In this document: one piece after another, positions 68 through 61,950 of the stretch
How the letters are laid out: each line of letters begins with the position of its first letter
Numbering within the stretch: position 1 is the first letter of the stretch
Source of the DNA: Eledone cirrhosa
Lineage: Eukaryota
Direction of reading: 5' to 3'
Assembly: GCA_964016885.1 (NCBI GenBank)
Contig: OZ024740.1
Coordinates: 70,680,001-70,744,000 of the forward strand
DNA: 64,000 bases
The notes under the pieces: generated by a model
Seen by the model: only the letters and a program-made list of their open reading frames with translations
Database searches by the model: none
Told to the model about the DNA's origin: nothing
Made by a program: the position numbers and the translations under genes

Positions 68-262
68 AAGGAAAACAAATTGAAAATGCAACTGGAGGAT
101 TTCAGAAACACAAATCCTTATCTCAATTTTACTTTTAAAAATCATAAGAACTGTGAAACCGGTAAAGTAAATAAATGAATATTCTCAAAAGATTCCAGCT
201 GCATTTTCAATTTGTTTTCTTGTTGGGACATCTCTTTTTTTAAAAACAAAACTCATTTTCTT
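68..262. mobile_element. Diverged fold-back remnant of the HHR-bearing repeat family also at 23480, 43393 and 53698
   Basis: AAAACAAATTGAAAATGCAACTGG is inverted against CCAGCTGCATTTTCAATTTGTTTT; GAAACCGGTAAAG is shared with 53933-53945; (TA)n on both sides. Confidence 0.65.
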
Positions 263-442
263 ATATATATATATATATATATATATATATATATATATAT
301 ATATATATATATATGAATGTATATATAGTGTATTTTGCAATACACTTTATGCTTAATTAAAAGCATTTTGAAGACTGTATGCTATTGTTTTAGAGTAGTG
401 ACAGACTCACTTACTTTAATTTCAGCAAACAGGGGGAGATAA

Positions 443-488
443 ATCTGACAAGGCCTTGTTTCTGCATTTATTGATGCTTATCAAAGCC
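443..488 (-). ncRNA. Type I hammerhead ribozyme, U3-A8 core variant (inverted copy of 761-806)
   Basis: Reverse complement reads GGCT TTGATAA GCAT-CAATAA-ATGC A GAAAC AAGGCCTT GTC AGAT. Confidence 0.7.
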
Positions 489-760
489 AAGTACTCCTCC
501 TGTCTGCTGAAATTACGGATGTTATTTTCTTATACAATTCTAGTAAATAATCAGGAACTGATTATACAGAGCGGTTGCCGGTCAAGCAGAAATTAAAAAT
601 TACAATTGGTGCTCTGAAATAGCCATATATATATGAATGTATATATAGTGTATTTTGCAATACACTTTATGCTTAATTAAAAGCATATTATTTACTGATT
701 ATTTACTAGAATTCTATAAGAAATTAACATCCGTAATTTCAGCAGACAGGAGGAGTACTT

Positions 761-806
761 GGCTTTGATAAGCATCAATAAATGCAGAAACAAGGCCTTG
801 TCAGCT
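761..806 (+). ncRNA. Type I hammerhead ribozyme, U3-A8 core variant
   Basis: GGCT TTGATAA GCAT-CAATAA-ATGC A GAAAC AAGGCCTT GTC AGCT; palindromic stem III; enclosed by the long stem AATTTCAGCAGACAGG/CCTGTTTGCTGAAATT. Confidence 0.8.
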
Positions 807-1196
807 TTATCTCCCCCTGTTTGCTGAAATTAAAGTAAGTGAGTCTGTCACTACTCTAAAACAATAGCATACGGTCTTCAAAATGCTTTTAATTAAGCAT
901 AAAGTGTATTGCAAAATACACTATATATACATTCATATATATATGGCTATTTCAGAGCACCAATTCTAATATATATATATATATACACACACATGCATAC
1001 GTATATATTGAATGTCTGCGTTACGAGGATCGGGAAAACCACAGATCAGAGTAGTATTCGATAAATGGAGGAATGCGGAGTGGATATATTAACATGGTAG
1101 AAATTCGAACGCCAACTCGGCTTGTAACTTCTACAAGCTTGAAGAGATTACAAGCTGAAACCGCCCGCGGTCGAGTCTCTAAAACATACTTCTATA

Positions 1197-2187
1197 TCTA
1201 CTTATATATATAACCAGCAATTTCTCTGTCTGTCTGTCCGACAGTGGAAACACGTGCGTAGAGAGAGAGTGAGAGTGAAAGAAAGAGACAGACCACGAGA
1301 GGGGGATAGCGGGAGGGAGAGAGGGAGAGAGAGAGAGTGAATAGACGCTAAAACCCGTGCTACAGAAACATTACCTTCCCCTCTCCACTGACTTTGGTCA
1401 CTGAGGCCGAGGGAATCGCTGGTTGCTATAGAGACACCTTGCACAAGCCAGAAGTAACCAGTTCGAGGCGGTTCTGACTTGACACCATGCGAAGAAGGTT
1501 TCCATTGAATTTGTGGTTTGAAGAAGGTTGCCATTGAATTTGTGGTTGTTGCTGCTAATAATAAGGACCATTTGAAGAAGGTTGCCATTGAATTTGTGGT
1601 TGTTGCTGCTGATAATAAGGACCATTTGAAGAAGGTTGCTGCTGATGAGGTAATTTATTAATCAGATTGTGCAGTTCCATAACCTACGTTTGATTTGTTC
1701 AATTTTTTTCTTCAATTTTTTTGTTGTTTTTTTTATTTCTTATTGAAAAAATATAAATAATAAAATAAGGTTAGAAATTTAAATACAATTAAATACGATT
1801 TAATTTCCATTTCCAGCAGCCAATGTCCAGTGTTCAATTTCATGAAAAAATTGGAAATAATTAAAAAAATTGAAGTTTAACTTTTGAACATTTGTTTTGA
1901 CAATAAAAACATATTTCCTTATTCACACGTAATGGTATGATTAAAATTTCATAGGAATATTTTTTTCTAACCGCCAGTTATTTATTTTCTCCTTTTTCGT
2001 TTTAACATATATTTATTTCAAAGATTTCACCGTATAGATAACATATATATTTATACATGCATAAAAGACACACCGAGAGACGGTGAACATGTGGTGCCGA
2101 AAACATTTCTCATCCAAATCTCAACAATATCAGTATATACACTAGATTTGCTAGCAGAAAACCGCCCACCGGGTGGTTTTCTGCTAG
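1197..2187 (+). mobile_element. Non-autonomous Helitron A
   Basis: 5' TC..TATATATA..(CTGT)n start; 3' hairpin ending in CTAG followed by T. Confidence 0.65.
1491..1645 (+). repeat. 54-bp minisatellite inside Helitron A
   Basis: Unit GAAGAAGGTTGCCATTGAATTTGTGGTTGTTGCTGCT(A/G)ATAATAAGGACCATTT, two full copies plus partials. Confidence 0.9.
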
Positions 2188-59330: not shown

Positions 59331-60900
59331 TTGAATTAAAAGAAGTTTTGAATCAGTTAAGTTTTTAAATCAGCTAATATCTTCGAAATGTGCAATAGTG
59401 AATATGAACACCGGAAGCTGTTTTGTATAAGGTCAAGGTTTACAAATAGATATATATGTATAGGTTACCCTTCCCGCTCTTGTTTACCATATTTTTCTCT
59501 TCACTTATATATTGTCTATTTCTTCCCTTTCACAACACAATCAAATACACATATATATATATATATATACACGCGCATACACACACACATACACACACAC
59601 ATACAAACACACACAATAGATACAGATGGCATGAAGATATATGTATATGTGTGTGTGTATATATATATACACACACACACATTTAATCAGACGCATACAC
59701 AAACACGCAATACACACATAGAACGTACGAATCTTTGATTCGTATTTGCATAACACTTAAAATAAGTGATATGTATGCATAAACGTGTCACCGTGAGGCT
59801 GGTAGATACACAAATCACACAATGACACATAATAACATAGATCTATAGAGGTAAAACAGACAGAGAAGTGGATGCCCCAGACGTAATGCAAAACATTTGT
59901 CAAGTGAATATACACCATTTTGTTTTATTACTCGGATTGCTTACAATGTTACAGTCACCTTTCCTCTCATACACCTTTTCCCTCGCTTTATATATATATA
60001 TATATATATATATATATATATATATAGAGAGAGAGAGAGAGAGAGAGAGAGAGAGAGAGAGAGCGAGAGAGAGTATATACACACACATATACATACTAGT
60101 ATAGTACTCGTCAAAATTGACGGAGTGTATAGTAAAAAGTGTTTTATTTAATATTTGAAGTACATTTATCTTTCTGCCCACAAAGAAATATAATCAACCA
60201 GTCTCTCTCTCTCTCTCTCTATCTATCTCTCTCTCTCTCTCTCTATCTCTCTCTCTCTCTCTCTCTCTCTCTCTCTCTCTCTCTCTCTCTCTCTCTCTCT
60301 CTCTATCTATCTATCTATCTATCTATCTATCTATCTATCTCTCTCTCTCTGAGGTATATATATATATATATCTGAGGTATATATATATATATATATATAT
60401 ATATATATATATATATATATATATATATATATACACACACACTTCAGTTATGCATTATACACGATGGGCCATTCCAGTAAATAGCTATTATCACTGGAGT
60501 CGTATCTGTGAGTAGGGGCTATAGGATCTTAGCTGTTAAGCATACAATTGCTAGCAGTGGAGACGTCTGGTGTCCTTGGCCCTAGGGCCACCTCCCTGTG
60601 AGCCTCGCAGGCTGGATTAGCTCTTCCAGCGCGTCTCCTTCACCATCCTCTGGGGAAACGCCTTCTCTATTCTGTCCACAGAGGCCGCAAGGCGGCTACA
60701 GCATGGGCTCCCATTTGCTCATAATAGTGAGAAATGGGGAGAGCGGGAGCGACAGAGGCAGTGACAATGGGAGTTTGGTTCCCTTCTGTTCAGACCTGGT
60801 GTGTATGTATACCGCACCACTATATATATTTAGCTGTGAGCAACGGAATTGTTAGACGGTGAGGTTGATTCCTGAACCGATTTTGTCACAACGCGAATGA

Positions 60901-61551
60901 GTGAGAAAGAAAAAGAACTATAATAAGTTCGACAGGTTCCAGTCCAAACTTAGGAATATCGTTAAGGATTTTAAAGGGAATAAGTCTATTCTTGTCCCGG
61001 CTGACAAGACTAAGAATCTTTACTCTATGGATTACAATGCTTACCGTAATTTTATCTATAAGGAGCTGCATAAAAATTACAAAAAGACAACGCAAGATAA
61101 TTTAGATCATATCAATAATGAGGGTCTCAAGATAGTTTCGGACCTGGGCCTTGATAAGTATACCCAGCCATATTACCCTAGGGAACCGAGATTCACTCTT
61201 AAGGATCATAAGATAGACTTCATTAGTAATCCTTCTGTTAGACTCATTAGTCCTTCTAAGTCTGATATAGCTATAATTAGTAAGAAAATCCTTGACCTGA
61301 TTATACCAGCCGTTAGGGAAAAGGTTCATTTTAATTTATGGGGGAACACTAAGGATGTTATAGATTGGTTCTCTGGAATTAATAAACTTGAGTCTAGTAG
61401 GTTTATCCAGTTTGATATTGATGCCTATTACACGTCGATTTCACTTATCCTCCTTAATAAAGCCTTAATTATGGCCATGCGAGTGTCTAGCCTTACACGA
61501 CCGCAGATTGATGTTATACTAGCAGCCCGTAGGACTATCATCTTGTATTAG
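60901..61551 (+). pseudogene. PLE RT N-terminal half
   Basis: Aligns by eye with ORF 29378-30478 and its upstream region; stops before the YRDD motif. Confidence 0.9.
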
Positions 61552-61578
61552 TCGATAGTGCTTCTTGTAGCTTTACTT

Positions 61579-61616
61579 GCCCTGATGAGTCCTTAATAGG
61601 ACGAAACATTGTTGGC
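61579..61616 (+). ncRNA. Minimal type I hammerhead ribozyme
   Basis: GCC CTGATGA GTCC-TTAATA-GGAC GAAAC ATT GTT GGC. Confidence 0.88.
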
Positions 61617-61754
61617 TAATAGAGACTCTTTGGTTTATTTTTTATAATTTATATATATAACGATCGTAAAATGATGAATTTTTTAATATAAGGAACTTGT
61701 TTTTATTAATTTATATATATATATATATATATATATATATATATATATATATAT

Positions 61755-61950
61755 AACGAAGGAAATGTGGTACGGAACCAGATGGACCATAACGCACCAA
61801 AGTACTCAATACTTAGGGTAGTAGAGTGGGTAATAGGAACGAGTGGGACCCCGACGGCTGAGCTCAAGCCGTTTCGACGGTAATTCTAGTCCAGAATTAG
61901 CCGTCGAAACGGCTTGAGCTCAGCCGTCGGGGTCCTACTCGTTCCTATAT
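61755..61950. mobile_element. Fold-back of the 4820 family with the 3' half of an HHR
   Basis: Arms 61834-61887 / 61893-61948; GAAAC GGC TTGAGCTCA GCC GTC GGGG. Confidence 0.85.

Follow-up and report, generated by a model that had tools for sequence, protein, structure and literature searches.

The window, the whole 64-kb stretch of DNA that was analyzed, harbors Penelope-like element (PLE) inserts in head-to-head arrangement at all 13 loci listed in the preliminary description and at one tentative further locus (52345-52455). The earlier claim that the listed intervals are head-to-head with both outer ends on (TA)n is borne out at 13 of 13, and all 28 outer ends of the 14 inserts abut a TA run of 11-33 nt within ~30 nt. 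A clear inverted repeat is present in 12 of the 13 listed intervals, with arm identities of 81-100%; at 52608-52742, the arms overlap by just 12 nt, 11 of which match. The 3′ ends had also been said to point outward, which is supported by ORF strand, outward hammerhead cores, and family alignments. Minus-strand ORFs set the polarity of 27070-31307 and 34915-38042, while the orientation of 23480-23745 and 52608-52742 comes from family alignment. The center is symmetric or not resolvable in 5 of the 14 inserts.

Two inserts retain coding sequence. In both the endonuclease-positive PLE hallmark, RT and GIY-YIG in one unit, is found in broken ORFs, and the general PLE features (pLTRs in direct or inverted orientation, 5′ truncation, and a tail) are present. 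The first (27070-31307, minus strand) consists of a long left arm with a 134-nt one-sided extension and a short untailed inverted pLTR (30966-31307, 97%). Its RT (29378-30631) is backed by 250 homologs at E ≤ 1e-10, and its GIY-YIG domain (28519-29130) scores E 6.4e-4, below the Pfam cut-off. A single-armed, internally deleted relative on the plus strand (60900-61711) shares 66% amino-acid identity with 29378-30631 and carries a hammerhead motif at 61582-61613. The translations display DKT (in both pieces), a CxCx5C linker, no CCHH, and CxxC and CxH near the nuclease end, with (TA)n as target; RWK is seen only in relatives of 27070-31307. These motifs agree with the published description of the Hydra clade, to which both pieces are putatively assigned. 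As in the passages of PMC8557442 on that clade, 27070-31307 combines CxCx5C, a C-terminal GIY-YIG lacking the cysteine pair, and flanking (TA)n; in contrast to it, both copies are broken.

The second coding insert (34915-38042, minus strand, family F1) is frameshifted, with RT at 35992-37485 and GIY-YIG at 35471-36016 (RVT_1 E 3.4e-5 and GIY-YIG E 0.002, both below Pfam cut-offs). The translation of 35471-36016 shows a CX2-5CxxC linker and two cysteines within GIY-YIG, and on the motifs given in passages of PMC8557442 the element is a probable member of the Neptune or Nematis clade. Its long left arm (34915-37897) is untailed; the short inverted right arm (37894-37985) bears a 57-nt tail (37986-38042) that has no counterpart in the long arm. 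The other F1 insert (39962-40548) has identical arms (257/257), a left tail at 39962-40020, and a 12-nt spacer (40280-40291) that is part of the untailed right arm.

The remaining inserts are short. Family F2 comprises 68-262 (an untailed antisense left arm at ~68-110 and a sense right arm from ~98 with its tail at ~222-262), the old insert 23480-23745 (arms 81%, a 25-nt sense spacer, and a right tail of ~40 nt), and 53698-54088 (arms 97%, a duplicated junction sequence, and a 63-nt right tail). Family F3 comprises 32370-32570 (56-nt arms, an 83-nt right tail), 61755-61950 (55-nt arms, a 78-nt left tail), each with a 5-nt loop, and tentatively 52345-52455, in which a tailed antisense arm meets an untailed sense end of 8-9 nt. 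The F4 insert 52608-52742 begins with a 76-nt tail plus 12 nt, and its untailed right arm starts at the hammerhead core; alignment to the copy at 39697-39905 reveals an antisense left part fused to a sense right part. Three further inserts carry one-sided extensions: 3745-4132 (untailed left arm 3747-3834, right arm 3924-4018, extension 114 nt), with an 89-nt spacer holding a sense hammerhead-like core that is exact but folds weakly; 23767-24160 (arms 23867-24027 and 24032-24160, a central hairpin, and 99 nt on the left); and the near-perfect palindrome 24842-25365 (99%, 102 nt on the right). The insert at 313-968 is built from a ~320-nt tandem unit and is retrozyme-like, with arms 98% identical: an untailed arm (313-557) and an antisense partial repeat holding a tail copy (558-689) on the left, and an arm from 692 with a tail at 945-968 on the right. 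This insert and its neighbor 68-262 share a TA tract.

Exact hammerhead cores face outward in both arms of 24842-25365 (24894-24932, minus; 25169-25207, plus) and 39962-40548. Such cores occur in F1, 24842-25365, and the Hydra piece at 61582, and are degenerate or partial in others: a one-mismatch core in 53698-54088 and 23767-24160, and only a two-mismatch or 3′-half motif in 68-262, 313-968, 32370-32570, and 61755-61950. Eight exact cores pass the structure filter, compared with 0.4 in shuffles. Minimum free energy folds of nine candidates are mostly non-significant (z +0.25 to −2.43), and the 150 of 268 Rfam matches listed contain no hammerhead family, only microRNA-type chance matches. Non-LTR retrozymes (10.64898/2026.07.22.740005) likewise are short, non-coding hammerhead units related to pLTRs, and the tandem unit of 313-968 recalls them. 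However, the units here are mainly inverted one-tail inserts rather than long tandem arrays, and 313-968, with ~1.2 tandem units and a degenerate core, was rejected as a retrozyme, which has at least two tandem units and complete hammerheads.

The preliminary description went too far in speaking of one geometry, because 12 single-armed PLE or PLE-like pieces share the window; these were chosen by inspection and lack a genuine inverted partner inside 4 kb, one giving a 12-nt match. The single-armed PLE at 6420-9647 (minus strand), with a DKG-motif RT, no endonuclease part, and a 503-nt terminal direct repeat (6417-6919 = 7010-7512), is thus a counter-example. Single tailed arms lie at 39697-39905 (F4, minus strand, TA-rich repeats on both sides) and 43396-43607 (F2, minus strand, (TA)n on both sides), and a tail-only F4 fragment at 38062-38092 (plus strand) sits between TA-rich repeats. 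Separately, inverted repeats at 44848-45803, 45810-46481, and 50063-50476 enclose their TA tract, with PLE identity established for none. The interval 45600-45845 is a candidate zero-overlap insert composed of a 204-nt arm and a 36-nt tail-only arm, although no copy joins both parts.

Each insert is composed of one tailed and one untailed PLE arm joined head-to-head. This holds for all 14 window inserts (13 listed and 1 tentative, 9 families), with no two-tail or no-tail case; in four of the nine families (those of 3745, 23767, 24842, and 27070), the tail is a one-sided extension known from a single copy only. If each end chose its start site independently, the chance of this outcome would be at most 0.5^13 = 1.2e-4, or 0.002 counting 9 families. 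The tail lies on the right in 8 inserts and on the left in 6 and measures 24-134 nt, compared with 30-40 nt in PLE units described in passages of PMC3846280 and PMC8557442. Both 3′ ends recur at fixed positions among copies of F1, F2, F3, and F4. Tail side is independent of arm length: in seven inserts, three in the window (34915-38042, 39962-40548, 52608-52742) and four in a second animal (L159, L154, L008:9405-10155, L008:9256-9358), the tail is on the shorter arm and missing from the longer. The proximal, untailed end coincides with an alternating TA motif within the element's own sequence (capped sum 28 versus 8.8 expected, P 1.5e-5; 15.5 under a stricter null, P 0.0015). TA microhomology at this site spans 1-10 nt, being 1 nt in two window inserts. 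Arms within a locus are more similar than arms of different loci (96-98% versus 82-86% in F3; 100% versus 96.7% in F1), with the exception of 23480-23745, whose arms (81%) resemble other F2 copies at least as much as each other. The arm similarity fits descent from one RNA, or from two RNAs of one source copy.

The second animal, G001, is represented by host-derived contigs, in which 12-14 of 15-17 scorable inserts have exactly one tail (12 clear, 2 tentative). Seven of its inserts show target duplications of 9-15 nt, which are unreadable inside the (TA)n of the window, and in each a single duplication encloses both arms, the geometry of LINE-1-type twin priming. The layout thus also occurs at ordinary target sites, and self-complementary (TA)n, formerly put forward as the target that is cut on both strands, is unnecessary and was rejected as the cause of the layout. 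In one G001 family, the proximal TA microhomology is ~1 nt. Among 90 loci, six hammerhead-bearing inverted pairs were found, all in L003, L007, and L008; five are head-to-head, and one is tail-to-tail across TA tracts between separate inserts. L147 contains one fused 3′-inward junction. The 77 metagenome loci yielded no hammerhead-bearing inverted pair, and the viral contigs searched yielded no relatives. Symmetric hammerhead-motif repeats in L141 and L145 were set aside as probable DNA transposons.

The head-to-head layout itself is already known: it and the (TA)n bias of PLEs have been published (PMC3846280, PMC8557442). In the passages of these papers on endonuclease-positive PLEs, a typical unit has an inverted 5′-truncated copy at its 5′ end and a tail at one end. 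The published units are alike in head-to-head orientation (the most frequent one according to PMC3846280), junction palindromes, a tail that may sit at either end and is often confined to one, hammerhead motifs of the pLTR, and target duplications at non-repeat sites, here those of G001. Those passages give no count for the one-tail rule, and PMC8557442 names the origin of the inverted repeats and tails as a task for the field. The one-tail count, the finding that tail side does not follow arm length, and a zero-overlap insert are additions to the published layout.

Judged from sequence arrangement, the head-to-head inserts probably arise by twin priming, with each cut end using one of two RT start sites. 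In the likely course of events, an AT-rich target is nicked on both strands by the element's nuclease, and the two exposed ends start separate cDNAs, one at each RNA start site; the ends of these cDNAs would afterwards be fused head-to-head. Both primers would usually load on the same RNA end, probably of one RNA, and therefore could not use one start site. Where arms overlap, the polymerase that follows would have to strip off the cDNA ahead of it; joining may proceed via short complementarity, to which naturally occurring hammerhead stems or a transient fold-back sometimes contribute. Single-armed copies could stem from events that left the second end unextended, or from its later loss. That both target ends prime cDNAs that are then joined had been proposed before, and this part gains support from the seven short-arm-only tails, the zero-overlap insert, and published in vitro data. 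The two primings had been treated as equivalent, which is corrected here: one arm ends proximally and the other at the distal tail site.

The in vitro data concern Poseidon PAc, a PLE protein that cuts and extends both strands from two start sites; these delimit the tail, and a dimer is predicted (PMC11167929). AT-rich cutting, extension of both strands, and two tail-bounding start sites would be shared with the inserts described here. However, the passages of PMC11167929 on the start sites do not tie them to two target ends or to inverted inserts and leave later integration steps unvalidated, and initiation by PAc is non-homologous, as opposed to the TA microhomology at the proximal site here. 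Twin priming is known from LINE-1 (Ostertag and Kazazian 2001, as described in PMC10760644 and 10.1101/2024.12.14.628481), and in the literature searched the model is described only for that element. Two target-end cDNAs, a head-to-head join at microhomology, and one target duplication would be common to both systems, whereas the inverted product is a minority outcome in LINE-1 and common here. The zero-overlap insert in G001 (L008:9256-9358) shows the LINE-1 pattern. In LINE-1, the second priming falls at varying internal positions, and the arms overlap little. In contrast, both sites here are fixed near the RNA 3′ end, and the arms often overlap by hundreds of bases.

A self-priming hairpin, in which (antisense) RNA or a single cDNA doubles back to template its own copy and nuclease resolution strips the tail of one arm, has been proposed for PLEs (PMC3846280, PMC8557442) and is here considered unlikely. 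Near-identical arms speak for it, as do the palindromes at the junctions (30933-30963, 31 nt; 24842-25365, which lacks a spacer; the loops of both F3 inserts 32370-32570 and 61755-61950) and a clear, ORF-internal fold-back at L008:7841-8002. The AT motif at the proximal end could be cut by the nuclease, and a PLE protein does cut its own pLTR (PMC11167929). However, a target-primed cDNA cannot yield a short arm containing sequence that the long arm lacks, as in the seven cases above, nor arms without overlap, as in L008:9256-9358, where they span query positions 88-138 and 148-198; a single cDNA folding back therefore cannot be the source of these inserts. A free hairpin trimmed on either arm passes the short-arm test but fails the zero-overlap case, and it needs a way to join both ends to the target that is itself hypothetical. 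The one-tail rule, the independence of tail side, and the zero-overlap insert favor two primings over antisense self-priming.

Two primings could also act on two RNAs, one per dimer subunit, copied from both target ends, with a timing asymmetry fixing the start sites. The predicted dimer and start sites alike for both strands (PMC11167929) suit this arrangement, long overlaps (up to 758 nt in L007) would need no strand displacement, L008:2280-3454 resembles a head-to-head join of two different PLE families, and both arms of L003:4159-7952 stop at the same site. Yet free or symmetric choice predicts many two-tail or no-tail inserts, of which the window (14 inserts) has none and G001 a single one (L003:4159-7952) among 15 scorable PLE inserts. 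In addition, the zero-overlap insert ends 9 nt before reaching the proximal site, as though the other primer stood in its way. Use of two RNAs is accordingly regarded as rather improbable. Two separate insertions into one TA tract, or later repair or gene conversion, are very improbable builders of the palindromes: single-armed pieces are common, TA tracts are hot spots, and neighbors such as 68-262 and 313-968 share them, but there is no TA between the arms, locus-specific variants are common to both, one target duplication surrounds both in seven G001 inserts, and a one-tail rule is not expected.

The short-read overlay was run on one family, F1, with runs X3-X5 and X12 left out for their small word shares. 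In run X6, 149 contigs run out of F1 into (AT)n at its proximal end (37985), and summed contig depth is ~44 times lower at the 5′ end than at the 3′ end; in run X9, one contig exits at the tail end. Raw Illumina reads of another sample contain F1 head-to-head joints with side lengths of 37, 59, and 65, equal to the distance from the read start at 35198, and further joints link 35256 to 37937 and 35303 to 37928. Fold-back read or assembly artefacts, to which two inserts with 99-100% identical arms and the lack of any listed contig piece spanning the window junction 37894-37897 might point, have next to no probability, because arm divergence reaches 19%, the symmetry breaks off at family-fixed ends without ever extending into unique flank, head-to-head F1 joints occur in these reads of another sample, and another animal shows the same layout.

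Twin priming on a dimer-bound RNA end with two fixed start sites may, more tentatively, be the normal integration route of endonuclease-positive PLEs across clades. In that case, the inverted pLTR, the one-sided tail, and the target duplication would follow from a single step, requiring neither an antisense template nor conventional second-strand priming. The one-tail findings yield yes-or-no predictions for the PAc assay and for any long-read assembly. If correct, a telomerase-related RT would synthesize the two strands of the inserted DNA, starting at each of the two target ends, and this would also account for the short palindromes that pile up in the microsatellites of PLE-rich genomes.

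In the AT-rich animal DNA of this Eledone cirrhosa window, 93 merged (TA)n tracts occupy 7.5% of the sequence and account for 74% of the microsatellite bases counted. The preliminary description listed 13 head-to-head inserts of Penelope-like elements (PLEs), with an antisense left arm, a sense right arm, and both outer ends on (TA)n, and this layout is borne out. In a self-comparison of the window, 12 of the 13 intervals show inverted repeats, with arm identities of 81–100% and spacers of 2 nt to 3.4 kb in arm-by-arm alignments. At the thirteenth, 52608-52742, the arms overlap by 12 nt only, and alignment with another copy reveals an antisense part fused to a sense part. 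A tentative fourteenth insert with an 8-nt arm was added at 52345-52455, and TA runs of 11–33 nt lie at all 28 outer ends. Both long elements (27070-31307 and 34915-38042) carry their reverse transcriptase (RT) and GIY-YIG nuclease reading frames on the minus strand; thus, the long left arm of each is antisense. In 24842-25365 and 39962-40548, both arms contain exact hammerhead cores that point outward; eight exact cores pass the structure filter vs 0.4 in shuffles. The remaining inserts have a degenerate or partial hammerhead motif, or their polarity is taken from family alignments. Exact plus-strand cores also occur outside all listed inserts, at 53084-53133, 46648-46683, and 39589-39632. 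For F1, the family of 34915-38042 and 39962-40548, summed contig depth in sequencing run X6 drops about 44-fold inward from the TA-joined end, as 5′ truncation predicts. The head-to-head feature is genuine, and its layout has already been published.

Nine families are represented, including those of the two long elements. The 27070-31307 element harbors DKT, a CxCx5C linker, and a GIY-YIG domain without the cysteine pair, features that by sequence match those listed for the Hydra clade; its relative at 60900-61711 is 66% identical. The CX4CxxC linker and cysteine pair of 34915-38042 are as in Neptune and Nematis. The short inserts are 5′-truncated or non-autonomous ends of the PLE terminal repeat (pLTR). 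Retrozymes are regarded as PLE derivatives in the available text of 10.64898/2026.07.22.740005.

The claim of a single insertion geometry does not hold, as 12 other PLE or PLE-like pieces in the same window, chosen by inspection and including the long pieces 6420-9647 and 60900-61711, lack a genuine inverted partner at distances up to 4 kb. Three inverted repeats in the window harbor (TA)n inside instead of outside, and none bears a clear PLE mark. The palindrome at 50063-50476 has 206-nt arms (98%) around a central (TA)n and lacks TA outside; neither a hammerhead nor an ORF was found in it. A similar TA-centered repeat in contig L003 of a second animal (3901-4139 and 8253-8460) is host to two PLE inserts. 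In the 44848-46481 region, two inverted pairs enclose TA tracts (44848-45046/45600-45803 and 45810-45845/46447-46481); at 45600-45845, an untailed arm and a tail-only arm of 36 nt may form one head-to-head insert. A short, presumably mariner-like element at 45159-45345, with inverted ends of 40 nt, lies in between. At 6417-7512, two perfect direct copies of 503 nt, 90 nt apart, represent either a tandem unit of 593 nt or a local duplication; they adjoin an RT frame interrupted ahead of any nuclease.

Many copies of a dispersed 150–250 nt repeat, 75–98% alike and probably a SINE, occupy 11361-19937, 26196-26736, and 55406-58285. At 1190-1260, 2150-2260, and 3540-3595, short hairpins precede CTAG and (TCTG)n-type runs, resembling Helitron or Helentron ends. 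Broken minus-strand frames at 57333-59369 and 33381-33699 resemble a non-LTR (RTE-type) RT; 57333-58016 has no Pfam match. The imperfect (TA)n tracts at 40879-41624 and 42563-43933 (0.7–1.4 kb) have pieces of family F2 and other short pieces embedded.

A common feature of all 14 inserts is that one arm meets (TA)n at a proximal site, while the other extends 24–134 nt further, as a tail, to a distal site. Eight inserts carry the tail on the right and six on the left. Which side is tailed does not depend on arm length: the arm that extends more toward 5′ is tailed in five inserts and untailed in four, and five inserts are symmetric or unresolved. Within each of F1, F2, F3, and F4, independent copies end at the same two sites, and in X6, 149 contigs pass from F1 into (AT)n at the proximal site; for four families, a single copy shows the tail. 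Under independent site choice, the pattern has a probability of at most 1.2e-4 (0.002 by family). The proximal site falls on the element's own TA-alternating motif of 1–10 nt more often than by chance (P 1.5e-5; 0.0015 under a stricter null).

Searches for Hydra-type RT led to host-derived contigs in the metagenome bin G001. Several bacterial bins (L001-L013, G001) hold PLE-rich animal host contigs and are therefore contaminated. Hammerhead-bearing inverted pairs were scored in L003, L007, L008, and L141-L159, the last picked from 20 matches plus the first 100 listed of 397 and 171 pattern matches. Twelve inserts are clearly one-tailed (L142, L143, L144, L157, L159, L007, L154, two in L003, three in L008), two tentatively so (L146, L158), and one (L003:4159-7952) has equal arm ends; three further pairs are cut off or unclear. 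The symmetric repeats of L141 and L145 were set aside as probable DNA transposons. In L159, a near-complete Poseidon-like copy, the tail is on the short inverted arm, and L008:9256-9358 joins an untailed arm to a tail-only arm with zero shared sequence. Three cases run against the simple picture: a true fold-back of ORF sequence (L008:7841-8002), a fused 3′-inward junction (L147), and a family with about 1 nt of TA microhomology at its proximal end. Pieces from two PLE families are mixed in the head-to-head joins at L008:2280-3454 and L008:9405-10155, a hint that one event can involve two RNAs.

A fold-back read artefact is rejected because mirror symmetry ends at family-fixed positions, the arms of one insert differ by up to 19%, the extra sequence is always on one arm, and further F1 inversions occur in X13, raw Illumina reads of another sample under the same species label. 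X13 reads from 35198 change strand after 37, 59, and 65 letters, hence head-to-head, and two more joints run antisense to sense (35256 to 37937; 35303 to 37928). Each joint has a single start, which a restriction-site library would be expected to give; for three other joints between opposite strands in this run, the direction is uncertain. None of the listed pieces spans the window's own junction at 37894-37897.

A single target-primed cDNA folding back would copy only its own content. The longer untailed side lacks the tail sequence in 34915-38042, 39962-40548, and 52608-52742; therefore, these three need two templated starts. In 313-968, the tail sequence also lies on the longer untailed side, within a tandem unit, so this insert is uninformative. 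The two primed starts of the preliminary description are supported. Its self-complementary (TA)n target is not required, since seven inserts of the second animal have 9–15 nt target duplications outside (TA)n.

The inserts are best read as products of a staggered double nick that would free two 3′ ends, one of which would prime at the proximal site, with short TA pairing as an aid if present, and the other would use the distal site; the two cDNAs would stop early and be joined through short complementarity. The joint of 52608-52742 falls on a short inverted repeat that occurs naturally next to the hammerhead core; at 30933-30963, a brief fold-back precedes the joint. A single RNA best explains the never-shared sites and the tail-only arm ending just before the proximal site, although long overlaps would then need putative strand displacement. 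Each arm resembles its own partner more than it does other copies, consistent with a single RNA or a single source copy.

Twin priming of LINE-1 reportedly dates from an original description in 2001. It is also described in the available text of PMC10760644 and 10.1101/2024.12.14.628481. For PLEs, no paper on twin priming was found, and most subscription articles, older Penelope papers, and supplements, which lay outside the search, may hold the idea or counts. As far as the accessible texts go, PMC3846280 gives head-to-head as the most frequent PLE arrangement, notes a tail on a single inverted pLTR, and proposes self-priming with an antisense template; PMC8557442 reports an inverted truncated copy, often with a tail at one end, and states that Naiad and Hydra target (TA)n; and PMC11167929 describes both strands cut and extended from two start sites. 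The mechanism is named as an open task in the accessible part of PMC8557442, and the countable one-tail rule, together with the discriminating cases, makes this question testable.
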